DNA from: Escherichia coli
GTDB taxonomy: Bacteria > Pseudomonadota > Gammaproteobacteria > Enterobacterales > Enterobacteriaceae
Direction: 5' to 3' (one strand)
Length of the DNA stretch: 64,000 bases
Assembly: GCF_003334405.1 (NCBI RefSeq)
Contig: NZ_QOWM01000009.1
Both the position numbers and the translations under genes were made by a program. The stretch's first letter is position 1, and every line of letters starts with the position of its first letter. The notes under the pieces were generated by a model. The model saw only the letters and a list, made by a program, of their open reading frames with translations, had not been told where the DNA came from and ran no database searches. This document shows, piece by piece, positions 2-63,718 of the stretch.

Positions 2-605
<604 letters not shown>

Positions 606-607
<2 letters not shown>

Positions 608-644
608 ATAAACGGGAGGCGAAGGTGCCTCCCGTTTTGCTTTC
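606..644. terminator. Bidirectional intrinsic terminator between convergent envZ and pckA
   Basis: 9-bp stem ACGGGAGGC / GCCTCCCGT (612-620, 627-635), loop GAAGGT, A-run before and TTTTGCTTT after. Confidence 0.75.
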
Positions 645-682
645 TATAAGATACTGGATAGATATTCTCCAGCTTCAAATCA

Positions 683-2305
683 TTACAGTTTCGGACCAGC
701 CGCTACCAGCGCGGCACCCGCAGGGGTGTCGGTGTATTTATCGAAGTTGTCGATAAACAGTTTCGCCAGGGTTTCGGCTTTTTCCTGCCACTGTTCCGGA
801 GAAGCGTAGGTGTTACGCGGATCGAGAATCTTCGTGTCTACGCCCGGCAGTTCGGTTGGGATCGCCAGGTTAAACATCGGCAGAGTGAAGGTTTCTGCAT
901 TATCCAGCGAACCGTTGAGGATGGCGTCGATAATGGCGCGGGTATCTTTAATCGAGATACGTTTGCCAGTGCCGTTCCAGCCAGTGTTAACCAGATAAGC
1001 CTGCGCGCCCGCCGCCTGCATACGTTTCACCAGCACTTCTGCGTACTGAGTCGGGTGCAGCGACAGGAATGCCGCGCCGAAGCAAGCGGAGAAGGTTGGC
1101 GTCGGTTCGGTGATGCCACGCTCAGTACCGGCCAGTTTGGCGGTGAAGCCAGAGAGGAAGTGATACTGGGTTTGATCGGCAGTCAGGCGAGAAACCGGCG
1201 GCAACACGCCGAAAGCATCAGCAGTCAGGAAGATAACCTTAGTCGCGTGGCCCGCTTTGGAAACCGGCTTAACAATGTTATCGATGTGATAGATCGGATA
1301 AGAAACGCGGGTGTTCTCGGTTTTTGAACCATCATCAAAGTCGATAGTGCCATCTTCACGCACGGTGACGTTTTCCAGCAACGCATCACGACGGATAGCG
1401 TTGTAGATTTCAGGTTCCGCTTCTTTCGACAGCTTGATAGTTTTTGCGTAGCAGCCGCCTTCGAAGTTAAACACGCCGTCATCGTCCCAGCCGTGTTCGT
1501 CATCGCCAATCAGGCGACGTTTCGGGTCGGTGGAAAGGGTGGTTTTACCGGTGCCGGAAAGGCCGAAGAACACCGCAACATCGCCTTTCTCACCAACGTT
1601 GGCGGAGCAGTGCATAGAAGCGATACCTTTCAGCGGCAGCAGGTAGTTCATCATCGAGAACATCCCTTTCTTCATTTCGCCGCCGTACCAGGTGCCGCCA
1701 ATCAGCTGCATGCGCTCGGTCAGGTTAAACGCCACGAAGTTTTCGGAGTTGAGACCCTGTTCTTTCCACTGCGGGTTAGTGCACTTCGCGCCGTTCATAA
1801 CGATAAAGTCTGGTTTGAAACCTGCCAGTTCTTCATCGCTCGGGCGAATAAACATGTTTTTGACAAAATGCGCCTGCCAGGCCACTTCGGTGATGAAACG
1901 GACGGAAAGACGAGTATCCGGGTTCGCACCACAGAAAGCGTCGACAACGAACAGACGTTTGCCGGAAAGCTGCCTGGTCACCAGGCCTTTCAGATGCTGC
2001 CAGGTTTCCGGAGAGAGAGGTTTGTTGTCGTTCTTACCTTTGCCTTTGTCTGCCCACCAGAAAGTATCGCGAGTGGTATCGTCACGGACGATATACTTAT
2101 CTTTTGGTGAACGACCGGTGAAGATCCCGGTATCGACGGCAACGGCACCCAGATTAGTTAACACCCCGCGCTCATAACCTGTCAGGCTCGGATCGAGCTC
2201 TTCCTGATACAGCAGGTCGTAGCTTGGGTTGTAAACGATATCATGTACGTCACTGATACCATAAGCCTCGAGTTCTTGCGGGGTCAAACCATTGTTAACG
2301 CGCAT
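683..2305 (-). CDS. pckA: Phosphoenolpyruvate carboxykinase (ATP)
   Basis: 540 aa from ATG at 2303-2305 ([17 protein letters not shown]..) with AAGGAG SD; kinase P-loop GLSGTGKTT; ORF-track start 2374 is an upstream in-frame extension. Confidence 0.95.
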
Positions 2306-2423
2306 TTCACTGCTCCTTAGCCAATATGTATTGCCTGAATAGTAAAGTCTTTTTGGGGGTGTTAACCGCGACAAGGCTCATAGATTTACGTATCTGGAGA
2401 AATTCATATTTGACAAAAAACTC

Positions 2424-2439
2424 CGTGATTCCTGTCACG
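2424..2439. promoter_or_regulatory. Candidate CRP site upstream of pckA
   Basis: cGTGA-ttcctg-TCACg matches the TGTGA-N6-TCACA core, about 125 bp upstream of the pckA ATG. Confidence 0.45.
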
Positions 2440-2683
2440 AAACGGTTGCTATTATCGCAGAAATAGCATTTTAGGTGTGGAAAATGTTCTCAAAAGGTTA
2501 AATCTTGGTTTATATGGCGGGAATATTGTGAGTGGAATCGCATTCCTGAATGAAATTGATGCAAATTCAACCGGTAAAGTATCGATTCACCACGCTAACT
2601 TTTTTTGATTATTTTCTGAAAAAAGCAAAATACTACTGCCCGGATGCGATAATTAACCCACCTTTTGATTCTGGATAACCAAC

Positions 2684-4408
2684 ATGGATAACGTTGAACT
2701 TTCACCCGCAACACGCTGGGGGATGATTGCTACCGGATTACTTCAGGGTCTGGTTTGCTACCTGCTGATCGCCTGGCTTTCCGGAAAAAATCACAGTTGG
2801 ATTGTTTATGGCGTGCCTGCGACCGTCGCGTTTTCATCCGTTTTACTCTTCTCCGTGATCTCTTTTAAACAGAAGCGCCTTTGGGGATGGCTGGCGCTAG
2901 TGTTTATTGCCACGCTGGGGATGAGCGGCTGGCTGAAGTGGCAAACTGATGGCATGAACCCCTGGAGAGCTGAAAAGGCGCTTTGGGATTTTGGTTGCTA
3001 TCTGCTGTTGATGGCAATGTTGTTGCTACCGTGGATACAACAAAGCCTTCGCATCCGCAATGACAGTAGCCGCTATCGCTATTTTTACCAGTCAGTATGG
3101 CATAACGTACTTATATTACTGGTGATTTTTCTCGCCAATGGCTTGACGTGGCTGGTGCTTTTACTGTGGAGTGAGTTGTTTAAACTTGTTGGCATCACGT
3201 TTTTCAATACGCTCTTTTTTGCAACCGACTGGTTTATTTATCTCACGTTAGGTCTGGTTACCGCGCTGGCGGTGATCCTCGCGCGAACACAGTCACGTTT
3301 AATCGACTCTATTCAAAAGTTGTTCACGTTAATCGCCACGGGGTTGCTGCCGTTAGTATCATTGCTAACCCTGATGTTTATCATCACCCTGCCGTTTACG
3401 GGCCTGAGCGCGATTTCTCGCCACATCTCCGCCGCCGGGTTGCTGTTGACGCTGGCCTTTTTGCAATTGATCTTAATGGCTATTGTCCGCGATCCGCAAA
3501 AAGCGTCACTTCCCTGGACAGGGCCGTTGCGTTGCCTGATTAAAACCGCTTTGCTGGTTGCTCCGCTGTATGTGTTCGTCGCCGCCTGGGCGTTATGGCT
3601 GCGGGTCGCTCAGTACGGCTGGACTGTCGACCGCTTGCAGGGCGTGCTGGCGGTGCTGGTGTTACTGGTGTGGTCGCTGGGGTATTTTGTCAGCATCGTC
3701 TGGCGTAAAGGGCAAAATCCCGTTGTTCTTCAGGGCAAAGTGAACCTTGCGGTTTCGTTATTGGTGTTGGTGATACTGGTGCTTCTTAATTCGCCGGTGC
3801 TGGACAGTATGCGCATTAGCGTGAACAGCCATATGGCGCGTTATCAGAGCGGCAAAAACACGTCAGACCAGGTAACTATCTACATGCTCGAGCAGAGCGG
3901 TCGCTATGGACGTGCTGCGCTTGAGTCGCTGAAAAGCGATGCCGGGTTTATGAAAGACCCGAAACGCGCGCGGGATCTGCTGATGGCGTTAGATGGAGAG
4001 CAACATCTTCAGCAACAGGTATCGGAAAAAGTATTAGCCGATAATGTGTTAATTGCCCCTGGTTCTGTTAAACCTGATGCGACATTCTGGTCGGCCTTAA
4101 TCCAGGATCGCTATAACGTGATGACCTGTATTGAAAAAGACGCCTGCGTCCTGGTCGAGCAAGATCTGAATAGTGATGGTCAGGCGGAGCGGATCCTGTT
4201 TGCTTTTAATGATGACAGAGTCATTGTCTATGGCTTTGACTCAGACAGAAAAGAATGGGACGCGCTTGATATGAGTTTACTTCCGAACGAAATAACGAAA
4301 GAAAAATTACTCACAGCTGCGAAGGATGGAAAACTGGGGACGAAGCCTAAAGCGTGGCGCGATCTTGTAGTGGATGGTGAAAGGCTGAATGTGAATCTGA
4401 ATGAGTGA
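2684..4408 (+). CDS. yhgE: Polytopic inner-membrane protein of unknown function
   Basis: 574-aa ORF with ATG start; many hydrophobic segments followed by a soluble C-terminal domain. Confidence 0.85.
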
Positions 4409-6518: not shown

Positions 6519-8654
6519 TTATTCGATAAGGCTTTCTGAAGGGGTGATCAGTTGCGGGTTCAGGCAGCTTTCATAATAGGCCTGAATCTCCATCATGCGA
6601 GTGCGATGACGCTGGTAACGACGCCAGGCCTGTACGCCATTGTAAATGGCGCTACCCAGCATCGTCAGTAGCAGCAATGTGGTGCTGAGATAGCGCCACA
6701 GGCCGGAACGATCCGGGATCGGATGAAGGCCAATATGCTGCGTACCATTGGCGTCAGTGAAGATTTTTGTGACGATACCCTCGGCGTTAAACGGCGTATG
6801 CATCAGCATTTGTGCCAGTTTCTGGAAAGCGTTCCACTGTTCTTGCGGCGGGTAGTCGTAAAGTGATGCCGAAGGCCAGGGCTGATCAACAAAATCGCTG
6901 CCTTCGTCGCTGACAATCAGGAATCCGCCGGGGGCCGGACTGTTTAGTGATTGTGCCGCTCGCGCCGTTTCATGCGTGATAAACGGCGCGGTGGAGGTTG
7001 CCACCAGGTTATCCAGCGATTCCGCACTCACCGGGCGTAATAACACATTCACGCCATCGAGCTTCCCGGCGTTGGCGCGTTTTACCAGCGCGTCCCAGTC
7101 TTTACTGTTGCCGAGATTGACCAGCGCATTTTTCAGTCGCACACAGTCATCTTTGGCAGAACATAAATCCGCTGTCTTCAGTACAATGTCGCCAAAATCA
7201 TCAAGCAATACCATGCCGGATTTTTGAATTGCTGAACGTAATGAGGCACTGACGCGAGATTCATCTTCCGGTTTAGGGTGCAGCTGGCGATTAACTGCTT
7301 CAGTCAATGCCGTCGCTTTGTTGACCAGTTCAGATTCTGGTAATGGCAATGAGCGGGCGTCGTTCCAGATGATCTGCGAGCAGTCAAACGGTAAAAAAGG
7401 TGAATTGGTTTTCGCGCTCCAGGTTCCGGAAGTTCGAATATTACACATTCCCGTACCGCTAATACGTAATGTATCGCCTACCCGCACGCCAGCGTCAGCC
7501 AGTTGTTTTACGCTGGTGGCTTCAATGGTCTGCGCGCCTTTCATCCATGAGAGAGTGAATTTCAGCGGCATATCCAGCGGGATCCAGAATAACAGCATAA
7601 ACAGCACCAGCAGCGAGCCCGCAGCGATAATCGTACTGCGCAGCCAGTGCTGTAACGGAAAGTTTTTTACTTCATCATGCAGCGAAAGATATCGTCCCTG
7701 ACGCACTACATGGCGGTCGAGATAGATATCGATATCGGTTTGTTGACCGAGATCCTGAGCAATGTATGGCTGCCAGTGTGCGGGATAGACCAGGTCGATA
7801 ATACCGAGTGAAATATTGTTGATCTGTTCCTGATCGTTTTCGCCAAACAATCCCCAACGACGGGGTGTACCGCGCAGACAATGAATTTCCCGCAGGGAGG
7901 ATTTTGCCGGGGGCGCGAATAGCCCCCACAGACCTGCGCCCAGCAGCAGTAACGCGCCGCCTGCCAGCCACGGAACAAATACATCCGGGGTAATCAGGCA
8001 GAAAAAGAACATCAGGAAGGAGGCGACGATCAGCAACGCTTCACGCAGCCCGCGCGGACGACTCAGCGCATATTCTTCATGCGTTTCTTTGCGAATATTG
8101 AGTAGCTCGATTTGCTCACTCTCTTCCCCGCGAATCGACGCCTGCGTTGACGGAACAGGTTGCAAGGCATAGCTGCGAGTTTCCTGCATGTACTCCTGCA
8201 GCGTATGACCGTTGAGTGAAATAACCAGCGGCAGCGAATCGGTATGAATCAGTTCAACGGTATTCTCATCGTTGATGTACTGTTCCCAGAAAGGGGGCAG
8301 GTGGACTTCTACCGAATCGAGGTAGTAACGCCATTTATTCGGATCGTCGGTAGAGATGCCGTAACGCGTGATAGCGTGTGTCAGCATCATGACGTTGTTG
8401 CTTTCGGCATTCAGCGCCAGAGAGATCGGTGCCGCGCTGGCTCCCGTTGGGCCAGGCACCTGTAATACCTGCGTCAGGCTCTCAAGATAATTTTCAACGG
8501 CGCTACGTTCTTCAGGTGTGAGTTTACGCGTTTGCGCATCCGCGAAGGCGTTGGTCCAGGGCAGCTGACGCCGTCTGGATCGCACTTTTATCAGCCATCC
8601 CGCAAGTAGTGAGCAGGCCAGCAAAGCAGCTAAAAAAATCACAATGGTGCTCAT
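6519..8654 (-). CDS. igaA: Inner-membrane regulator of the Rcs phosphorelay, IgaA/YrfF
   Basis: 711-aa ORF with ATG start, N-terminal TM segment and internal TM block; sits upstream of yrfG-hslR-hslO. Confidence 0.9.
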   Translation of the reverse strand: MSTIVIFLAALLACSLLAGWLIKVRSRRRQLPWTNAFADAQTRKLTPEERSAVENYLESLTQVLQVPGPTGASAAPISLALNAESNNVMMLTHAITRYGISTDDPNKWRYYLDSVEVHLPPFWEQYINDENTVELIHTDSLPLVISLNGHTLQEYMQETRSYALQPVPSTQASIRGEESEQIELLNIRKETHEEYALSRPRGLREALLIVASFLMFFFCLITPDVFVPWLAGGALLLLGAGLWGLFAPPAKSSLREIHCLRGTPRRWGLFGENDQEQINNISLGIIDLVYPAHWQPYIAQDLGQQTDIDIYLDRHVVRQGRYLSLHDEVKNFPLQHWLRSTIIAAGSLLVLFMLLFWIPLDMPLKFTLSWMKGAQTIEATSVKQLADAGVRVGDTLRISGTGMCNIRTSGTWSAKTNSPFLPFDCSQIIWNDARSLPLPESELVNKATALTEAVNRQLHPKPEDESRVSASLRSAIQKSGMVLLDDFGDIVLKTADLCSAKDDCVRLKNALVNLGNSKDWDALVKRANAGKLDGVNVLLRPVSAESLDNLVATSTAPFITHETARAAQSLNSPAPGGFLIVSDEGSDFVDQPWPSASLYDYPPQEQWNAFQKLAQMLMHTPFNAEGIVTKIFTDANGTQHIGLHPIPDRSGLWRYLSTTLLLLTMLGSAIYNGVQAWRRYQRHRTRMMEIQAYYESCLNPQLITPSESLIE

Positions 8655-17816: not shown

Positions 17817-19103
17817 ATGGATGAATTCAAACCAGAAGACGAGCTGAAACCCGATCCCAGCGATCGTCGTACTGGTCGTTCTCGTCAATCTTCTGAACGT
17901 TCTGAGCGTACTGAACGTGGCGAACCGCAGATCAATTTTGATGATATTGAACTTGATGACACTGACGATCGCCGTCCGACTCGTGCGCAAAAAGAGCGCA
18001 ATGAGGAACCGGAAATCGAAGAAGAAATTGACGAATCCGAAGATGAAACCGTGGATGAAGAGCGCGTAGAGCGTCGTCCGCGTAAGCGCAAAAAAGCAGC
18101 CAGTAAACCCGCTTCTCGTCAGTATATGATGATGGGCGTCGGCATTCTGGTTCTACTGCTGTTGATCATCGGTATCGGTTCTGCGCTAAAAGCCCCCTCG
18201 ACCACTTCCAGCGATCAAACCGCGTCTGGCGAGAAGAGTATTGATCTTGCTGGCAATGCGACCGATCAGGCGAATGGCGTGCAGCCAGCGCCGGGAACCA
18301 CGTCTGCGGAAAATACTCAGCAGGATGTTTCTCTGCCACCGATCTCTTCTACGCCGACTCAAGGGCAAACCCCGGTGGCAACGGATGGTCAACAACGTGT
18401 TGAAGTGCAGGGTGACCTGAACAATGCGCTGACCCAGCCACAAAATCAGCAACAGCTGAACAATGTGGCGGTCAATTCCACGTTGCCGACTGAACCCGCA
18501 ACGGTTGCGCCTGTTCGCAATGGCAATGCATCGCGTGACACGGCGAAAACGCAAACCGCTGAACGTCCGTCCACTACGCGCCCAGCTCGTCAGCAGGCGG
18601 TGATTGAACCGAAAAAACCGCAAGCAACCGTGAAAACGGAGCCGAAGCCGGTAGCACAGACGCCGAAGCGTACTGAACCAGCTGCCCCTGTGGCGAGCAC
18701 GAAGGCACCGGCTGCGACTTCTACGCCAGCACCAAAAGAGACGGCGACTACGGCTCCAGTACAGACGGCATCCCCGGCGCAAACCACGGCAACACCCGCT
18801 GCTGGGGCGAAGACCGCAGGTAATGTTGGTTCGTTGAAATCGGCACCGTCCAGCCATTACACTCTGCAGCTGAGCAGTTCCTCTAACTACGACAACCTGA
18901 ACGGTTGGGCGAAGAAAGAGAATCTGAAAAACTACGTTGTCTATGAAACGACGCGTAATGGTCAGCCGTGGTATGTCCTGGTTTCTGGCGTGTACGCTTC
19001 GAAAGAAGAGGCGAAAAAAGCGGTATCTACATTGCCAGCAGATGTCCAGGCCAAAAACCCGTGGGCGAAACCGCTGCGTCAGGTACAGGCCGATCTGAAG
19101 TAA
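17817..19103 (+). CDS. damX: Cell-division protein DamX (SPOR domain)
   Basis: 428 aa: acidic N-terminus, one TM helix, long Pro/Thr/Ala/Gln-rich low-complexity linker, C-terminal SPOR-like domain. Confidence 0.9.
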
Positions 19104-19209: not shown

Positions 19210-20046
19210 ATGAAGAAAAATCGCGCTTTTTTGAAGTGGGCAGGGGGCAAGTATCCCCTGCTTGATGATATTAAACGGCATTTGCCCAAGGGCGAATGTC
19301 TGGTTGAGCCTTTTGTAGGTGCCGGGTCGGTGTTTCTCAACACCGACTTTTCTCGTTATATCCTTGCCGATATCAATAGCGACCTGATCAGTCTCTATAA
19401 CATTGTGAAGATGCGTACTGATGAGTACGTACAGGCCGCACGCGAGCTGTTTGTTCCCGAAACAAATTGCGCCGAGGTTTACTATCAGTTCCGCGAAGAG
19501 TTCAACAAAAGCCAGGATCCGTTCCGTCGGGCGGTACTGTTTTTATATTTGAACCGCTACGGTTACAACGGCCTGTGTCGTTACAATCTGCGCGGTGAGT
19601 TTAACGTGCCGTTCGGCCGCTACAAAAAACCCTATTTCCCGGAAGCAGAGTTGTATCACTTCGCTGAAAAAGCGCAGAATGCCTTTTTCTATTGTGAGTC
19701 TTACGCCGATAGCATGGCGCGCGCAGATGATGCATCCGTCGTCTATTGCGATCCGCCTTATGCACCGCTGTCTGCGACCGCCAACTTTACGGCGTATCAC
19801 ACAAACAGTTTTACGCTTGAACAACAAGCGCATCTGGCGGAGATCGCCGAAGGTCTGGTTGAGCGCCATATTCCAGTGCTGATCTCCAATCACGATACGA
19901 TGTTAACGCGTGAGTGGTATCAGCGCGCAAAATTGCATGTCGTCAAAGTTCGACGCAGTATAAGCAGCAACGGCGGCACACGTAAAAAGGTGGACGAACT
20001 GCTGGCTTTGTACAAACCAGGAGTCGTTTCACCCGCGAAAAAATAA
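19210..20046 (+). CDS. dam: DNA adenine methyltransferase (GATC N6-adenine)
   Basis: Catalytic DPPY motif ([10 protein letters not shown]) and AdoMet-binding FVGAGSVF; 278 aa. Confidence 0.95.
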
Positions 20047-60152: not shown

Positions 60153-60440
60153 ATGCTGCACACATTACATCGCTCACCCTGGCTGACGGATTTTGCTGCG
60201 CTGCTGCGTCTGCTCAGTGAAGGAGACGAACTGCTATTATTGCAAGATGGCGTAACTGCCGCAGTTGACGGTAACCGCTACCTTGAAAGTCTGCGTAATG
60301 CCCCCATTAAGGTCTATGCCCTGAACGAAGACCTTATTGCCCGCGGTTTGACTGGTCAAATTTCGAACGACATCATTCTCATTGACTATACTGATTTCGT
60401 CAGACTTACGGTTAAGCACCCCAGCCAGATGGCCTGGTGA
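60153..60440 (+). CDS. tusB: Sulfurtransferase complex subunit TusB
   Basis: 95-aa ORF 7 nt after tusC. Confidence 0.9.
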
Positions 60441-60462
60441 TGGCGGGATCGTTGTATATTTC

Positions 60463-61507
<1,045 letters not shown>

Positions 61508-61591
61508 TCCCTTCGGAGTTTTAGTCACCAGGCGGGCGCTTCCAGTAAGCAGCCCGCTTTGGGCTACTTAAATTGAACGCCTAAAAGATAA

Positions 61592-63718
<2,127 letters not shown>

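Follow-up and report, generated by a model that had tools for sequence, protein, structure and literature searches.

The rpsG gene in a close relative of Escherichia coli K-12 carries the wild-type stop codon and is followed by a predicted intercistronic hairpin

Ribosomal protein S7 occurs in E. coli in a form of 156 residues and in a form of 179 residues, and the two have been known since protein sequencing around 1979. We analyzed a 64,000-nucleotide stretch of E. coli DNA (hereafter, the window) with the str operon at its 3' end. Its rpsG gene almost certainly represents the ancestral, wild-type allele, from which the 179-residue form would have arisen by a one-base loss of the stop codon in the MG1655/W3110/EMG2 branch of K-12; on the same sequence comparisons, the strain from which the window derives is close to K-12 and lies outside both K-12 branches. 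The length polymorphism itself has already been published. The window simply carries the wild-type allele, which is ordinary and has little significance by itself. The comparison also serves as a reminder that the model strain MG1655 is the exception, both in S7 termination and in the layout of the rpsG-fusA junction.

The 3' end of the window contains rpsL, rpsG, and fusA in the order of the str operon (Table 1). A near-consensus σ70 promoter-like site (TTGACA, a 17-nt spacer, and TAAAAT; 11/12 matches) is found at 60463-60491. This site lies between tusB and rpsL, some 75 nt before the rpsL start codon, where the str operon promoter would be expected.

Table 1. Features of the rpsL-rpsG-fusA region, in window coordinates
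Feature	Position	Strand	Basis
rpsL, ribosomal protein S12, first gene of the str operon	60566..60940	+	ORF, ATG at 60566 giving MATVNQ...; matches MG1655 rpsL (b3342)
rpsG, 30S ribosomal protein S7 (uS7), 156 codons plus TAA	61037..61507	+	ORF listing and translation; Pfam PF00177
TAA stop codon of rpsG	61505..61507	+	Alignment with NC_000913.3; allele census
Untranslated rpsG-fusA spacer, 96 nt	61508..61603	+	Sequence; 61508-61573 is translated as 22 residues after Leu157 in MG1655-type K-12
GC-rich hairpin (predicted)	61528..61562	+	Single-sequence fold; consensus of five Enterobacterales spacers
In-frame TGA, unused in the window; stop of the 179-aa K-12 form, 27 nt 5' of the fusA ATG	61574..61576	+	
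GAGG Shine-Dalgarno sequence of fusA, 6 nt upstream of the ATG	61594..61597	+	Sequence; invariant in five aligned Enterobacterales spacers
fusA, elongation factor G, 704 aa, ATG at 61604	61604..63718	+	ORF listing; annotated fusA in matching genomes

Translation of the rpsG open reading frame gives an S7 of 156 residues whose C terminus, AFAHYRW, is followed directly by TAA, as had been read from the sequence alone. The sequence-only reading also counted 23 further residues up to the in-frame TGA; beyond the TAA we find 22 sense codons before that TGA, and the number becomes 23 once Leu157 of K-12 is added. The exact 156-residue product carries the Ribosomal_S7 domain (PF00177) in ten loci, where it is located between S12 (PF00164) and the EF-G domains. 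This domain and the shared rpsL-rpsG-fusA-tufA gene order identify the window protein as a member of the uS7 family. Its termination is that of the short proteobacterial S7, with the stop directly after ..H(Y/F)R(W/F/Y) at about 156 residues, and the identical protein is on record as 'MULTISPECIES: 30S ribosomal protein S7 [Enterobacteriaceae]'.

Pairwise alignment with MG1655 (NC_000913.3) revealed a single difference in the 3' end of rpsG. Window position 61506 is A and the corresponding MG1655 base is T, which makes the window's TAA a TTA (Leu157) in MG1655. The earlier statement that K-12 has a sense codon at this position and a 179-residue S7 was therefore correct, and the MG1655 gene is annotated accordingly as 540 nt (3473542-3474081 of NC_000913.3), which translates to 179 residues. 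The window does not have the allele of the MG1655/W3110/EMG2 type, which is defined by TTA at codon 157 and the downstream UGA stop.

We then queried 5426 complete E. coli genomes with 55-mers centered on the variant base. Because a central mismatch leaves no 28-base seed, each 55-mer finds its own allele only. TAA was matched in 5078 genomes and TTA in 348, which together account for all 5426, and the expectation that most other E. coli encode the short form is borne out. The TTA genomes sampled from across the ranking (60 of 348) are K-12 derivatives by name or genome size, among them MG1655, W3110-type strains, DH5alpha, DH1, BW25113, HB101, MC4100, J53 transconjugants, and O16:H48 strains; the statement that all TTA genomes have a K-12 backbone is extrapolated from this sample of 60. 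Two TTA genomes are recorded with other sources, THN257 ('chicken') and ecMN1F ('Coffea arabica'). Over 23.6 kb in which the window has four differences from MG1655, both match MG1655 at 100% identity and are therefore K-12 backbones. In these two genomes PGAP flags rpsG as a pseudogene (19559-20026 of each extracted locus; 'incomplete; partial in the middle of a contig; missing C-terminus'), cutting the gene at codon 156 and leaving the 179-residue protein uncalled. An essential gene is thus flagged as pseudo in K-12-type genomes because of the stop loss, and annotations of rpsG by the NCBI pipeline in such genomes should be read with caution. One of 20,395 plasmid records also has the TAA allele, in a copy that comprises the 3' end of rpsG and the 5' end of fusA. 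That record may represent either a misassigned contig or an F-prime-like plasmid bearing a piece of the chromosome.

The direction of the change was read from a scan of one genome per species, which returned at least 80 proteobacterial loci among the matches listed. This is a broad sample rather than one of the nearest genera, good for the direction of change and poor for fine covariation. In 80 of the 80 other proteobacterial species among the matches listed, S7 stops at the homologous residue after the C-terminal motif and has no extension. Most of these proteins have 156 residues (66 loci), the others 157 (10), 158 (1), or 159 (3), and they end at TAA (56), TGA (13), or TAG (11). Three Salmonella-like loci, which encode an identical S7 at about 3% DNA divergence and are probably from Salmonella, keep both the TAA and a 96-nt spacer. 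Beyond the TAA their frame has no second stop and reads straight into fusA, which means that the region after the TAA is no conserved coding tail. As all 80 listed outgroups stop at this residue and the Salmonella-like loci keep the TAA, these comparisons indicate that the short S7 and its spacer are ancestral, that the 179-residue form is a derived stop loss of the MG1655 branch, and that the K-12 tail is translated former spacer. The earlier suggestion that a former extension now forms the spacer had the direction reversed.

The genes rpsG and fusA share a reading frame across the 96-nt spacer (window 61505-61606; Salmonella-like locus 1669-1770). In the Salmonella-like sequence no in-frame stop separates them, and a change of the TAA to a sense codon would yield an S7-EF-G fusion. 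In E. coli two further in-frame stops follow as a backup (TGA at 61574 and TAA at 61589), which may be why the stop loss was tolerated in K-12.

The whole 64-kb window is collinear with MG1655 3471118-3535122 (reverse complement) at 99.975% identity, with 11 SNPs, of which the rpsG stop is one, and one 5-bp indel. The description of the window as K-12-like in organization was right as to collinearity and understated as to closeness. This identity is far above that of typical unrelated E. coli. Three of the window's differences are nonsynonymous (hofO A65T, yhfW T50K, and yhfT D315G, with the K-12 residue first).

K-12 itself is divided at rpsG. We checked the K-12 strain NCM3722 directly and found a 471-nt rpsG, a TAA stop, and a 156-residue S7. 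Over 67.6 kb, NCM3722 differs from MG1655 at only two SNPs, the rpsG stop and a synonymous site in pabA, and the window agrees with NCM3722 at both. The second site is pabA codon 150 (window 44738, MG1655 3490380; CGA/CGC); CGC is found in both the window and NCM3722, which suggests that the MG1655 base is derived at this site as well. Browning et al. (2023; PMC9997739) reported both the rpsG extension mutation and prfB Thr246 in EMG2, MG1655, and W3110, listed the rpsG mutation among the lesions that K-12 acquired in the laboratory, and placed WG1, a strain similar to NCM3722 and LS5218, on a K-12 branch of its own. The base at 61506 thus quickly marks the MG1655/W3110/EMG2 branch but, given that NCM3722 does not have the mutation, cannot serve to recognize all of K-12.

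Compared with NCM3722, the window has nine SNPs and the 5-bp indel over 64 kb, which is several times the distance between the K-12 branches. Judged over this 64-kb region and on the scale of two SNPs per 67.6 kb, the window falls outside the K-12 lineage, whichever branch is considered. The wild O157:H16 strain 98-3133 shares the window's allele, not that of K-12, at the indel and at four of the nine SNPs. The other five SNPs (7467, 22740, 32893, 42702, and 46387) are private to the window relative to both K-12 branches and O157:H16 98-3133, and all are synonymous or intergenic. The T at 7467 (igaA L396, TTG to TTA) occurs in 0 of the 5426 complete genomes, which indicates that the source lineage is absent from that set. 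None of the complete genomes equals the window exactly; the best matches to a 25-kb piece of it are wild human, animal, and food isolates, with scores slightly below perfect, a few SNPs away.

The indel lies at window 24119, in the yhfX-yhfY intergenic region (MG1655 3510999-3511003); the extra five bases are present in MG1655 and NCM3722 and absent from the window and O157:H16 98-3133. Some wild isolates appear to share the longer K-12 allele, as 25,005 bases were spanned for a 25,000-base query. Position 18788, where the two K-12 branches both differ from the window, was considered as a marker for counting K-12-lineage genomes with TAA and rejected: the K-12 allele there is found in 932 genomes, many of them wild, and therefore reflects ordinary population variation.

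On this evidence we are confident that the window comes from a natural E. coli strain that diverges from K-12 by only about 0.02% and belongs to neither K-12 branch. That placement follows from the nine SNPs and the 5-bp indel, not from the rpsG allele. The sequence-only reading had reached a similar conclusion, that the window is probably not of a K-12 lineage, by arguing from the TAA; the conclusion stands, and the argument does not, because a TAA that NCM3722 also carries cannot by itself exclude K-12.

Three other accounts of the TAA can be weighed against this one. The window might belong to a K-12 branch like that of WG1 and NCM3722, which never acquired the rpsG stop loss. NCM3722 was deposited as K-12, has TAA and the 156-residue S7, lies only two SNPs from MG1655 in 67.6 kb, and equals the window at both of those sites, and the published separation of a WG1 branch (PMC9997739) fits as well. 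However, the nine SNPs and the indel that separate the window from NCM3722 in 64 kb, set against two sites between the K-12 branches, largely refute this account, as does the match of four SNPs and the indel to O157:H16 98-3133 rather than to K-12. At one site the K-12 allele is common among wild strains (the 932 genomes noted above), and we regard membership in such a branch as very improbable. Even less credible is that the TAA reflects an error in sequencing or assembly, or a back-mutation in a derivative of MG1655-type K-12. Only one base is at issue, and the rest of the window nearly equals MG1655, but ten further SNPs and an indel accompany it in a natural pattern (synonymous, intergenic, or common to wild isolates), and there is no reason to suspect an error in what is the majority allele of the species, carried by 5078 of 5426 complete genomes.

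The remaining account reverses the polarity, such that a nonsense mutation truncated an ancestral 179-residue S7 and the spacer is a decayed coding tail. It draws on the open in-frame continuation to the TGA and on nothing beyond that. The outgroup comparison refutes it: the 80 listed outgroup species all stop at the homologous residue, and the Salmonella-like loci have the TAA followed by a frame that runs unstopped into fusA. Within E. coli, TAA is present everywhere but in K-12 backbones (the TTA backbones being sampled), and even the K-12 strain NCM3722 has it. We give this polarity practically no weight, and retain the reading of the TAA as the ancestral state.

With the wild-type allele, translation of S7 ends at UAA (codon 157) and yields the 156-residue protein that is identical across Enterobacteriaceae, and the following 96 nt are an untranslated spacer that contains a probably conserved hairpin and the fusA ribosome-binding site. 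In the MG1655/W3110/EMG2 laboratory branch, the single A-to-T change (TAA to TTA) gives the 179-residue form, with ribosomes reading 23 extra codons of former spacer, crossing the hairpin, and stopping at UGA 27 nt before fusA. Both forms assemble into ribosomes, as solved ribosome structures contain both 156-residue chains and the 178/179-residue K-12 chain. Many deposited S7 chains end at about residue 151-152, as would be expected if the C terminus were disordered.

The present analysis shows the one-base difference, how the alleles are distributed, which of them is ancestral, and how the window relates to K-12, as well as a hairpin that appears conserved; two further points are taken from the literature. 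In K-12, the extended rpsG ends at UGA, where RF2 Thr246 terminates poorly, and S7 is consequently SsrA-tagged, to a greater extent without RluD (Schaub and Hayes, 2011, as described in PMC9997739, 10.1101/2020.05.25.114553, and PMC4235212). In addition, the translation of fusA is coupled to that of rpsG (PMC10931766).

Seven other E. coli-type loci have exactly this spacer sequence, and in the Salmonella-like loci the spacer is also 96 nt long. Its predicted hairpin has a 10 bp stem, in which 61528-61537 pairs with 61552-61562 and one T (61560) is bulged, and a 14-nt loop in which four more pairs can be added. The GC hairpin GCGGGC/GCCCGC that had been noted in the spacer is part of this longer stem: the two arms are at 61532-61537 and 61552-61557, both inside the predicted 61528-61562 element. 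Taken alone, the fold of the window spacer is weakly to marginally better than shuffled sequences (z = -1.8 and -2.2 in two folds), and the significance of the hairpin comes from other species. Among the loci listed, 48 rpsG-fusA spacers (the window included) are at least 60 nt long, and 37 of the 48 fold with z < -2 (median -3.9). A strong GC-rich stem is found soon after the stop in Photorhabdus, Acerihabitans, Yersinia, Haemophilus, Vibrio, and Shewanella, with unrelated stem sequences. Five Enterobacterales spacers share a consensus hairpin in which one pair varies as G.U, G-C, and U-A and several pairs change on one side only; the covariation in this group consists of five sequences and one two-sided change. 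Changes in the hairpin arms of the Salmonella-like loci are compatible with pairing.

Spacer length varies widely. Among the 78 measured species listed, 47 have spacers of 60-293 nt, nearly always strongly structured, and the remaining 30 or so have spacers of 11-58 nt, with no room for such a stem.

An intrinsic, possibly partial, terminator or attenuator, through which fusA-tufA would be transcribed less than rpsL-rpsG, would place a strong stem-loop right after rpsG, where most long-spacer species have one, and it has a parallel in streptococci, where an attenuator candidate (PMC2965389) and a 3'-end peak (PMC10983905) lie between rpsG and fusA. The window hairpin does not have the form of a canonical terminator, because the stem is followed by TTTGGGCTACTT rather than by a U-tract and a terminator scan makes no call. 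The hairpins of most relatives also lack a T-run, EF-G is needed at levels comparable to those of the ribosomal proteins, and our literature search found no E. coli report of a 3' end, a processing site, or a structured element between rpsG and fusA. We therefore consider a role in termination unlikely. A scan of 60300-61800 on both strands, spacer included, with the Rfam 15 covariance models at E-values up to 1 gave no match, and neither did an Rfam scan of the 5' half of the operon.

Our best guess is that the hairpin acts not as a terminator but as a barrier to mRNA decay or processing between the ribosomal-protein and elongation-factor genes, a role in stability or processing being the most plausible one for an intercistronic RNA element of this kind. 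A wider proposal is that the hairpin after rpsG is a functional cis-element kept across the Gamma- and Betaproteobacteria that have long spacers, for example as an mRNA stability or processing barrier that sets the ratio of S12/S7 to EF-G, with MG1655-type K-12 then being atypical. We hold this proposal to be speculative and rather doubtful. If it were true, ribosomes of MG1655-type K-12 would translate through the hairpin and stop 27 nt before fusA, and K-12 measurements of how fusA is coupled and regulated would not represent wild E. coli. Nearly all str-operon regulation has been worked out in MG1655-type K-12.

A different structure in the spacer was considered and rejected. In a first fold, both the minimum free energy structure and the centroid paired 61511-61515 (CUUCG), directly behind the stop codon, with the fusA Shine-Dalgarno region at 61593-61597 (CGAGG), an anti-Shine-Dalgarno arrangement that, had it held, would explain the coupling of fusA translation to rpsG (PMC10931766). 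When the folded sequence was extended by 15 nt, 0.58 pairs between the two zones were expected, versus 1.9 with the first zone shuffled (p = 0.64), and p ≤ 0.05 was reached in 1 of 42 species only.

At the protein level, the window S7 has no differences from the wild-type S7 of E. coli and Enterobacteriaceae (WP_001138043.1, as in NCM3722 and O157:H16 98-3133). Length and TAA stop are equal, rpsG is 471 nt there, and the window is another carrier of this allele. The S7 of MG1655 (b3341, NP_417800.1, UniProt RS7_ECOLI) is identical to that of the window over residues 1-156, with DNA identical save one base, but adds 23 residues, stops at UGA, and leaves a spacer of 27 nt in place of the 96 nt in the window.

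Among known RNA elements of this operon, the autoregulatory operator of S7 in the rpsL-rpsG intercistronic RNA is likewise structured, intercistronic, and part of the str operon (PMC3616713, PMC10931766). That operator is located upstream of rpsG, whereas the window hairpin is downstream and has no reported S7 binding. The Pelagibacter motif (Meyer et al., 2009) and the streptococcal attenuator candidate (Naville and Gautheret, 2010) occupy the same position between rpsG and fusA (PMC2965389). We detected no sequence or Rfam relationship between these elements and the window hairpin, and the E. coli hairpin has no terminator U-tract.
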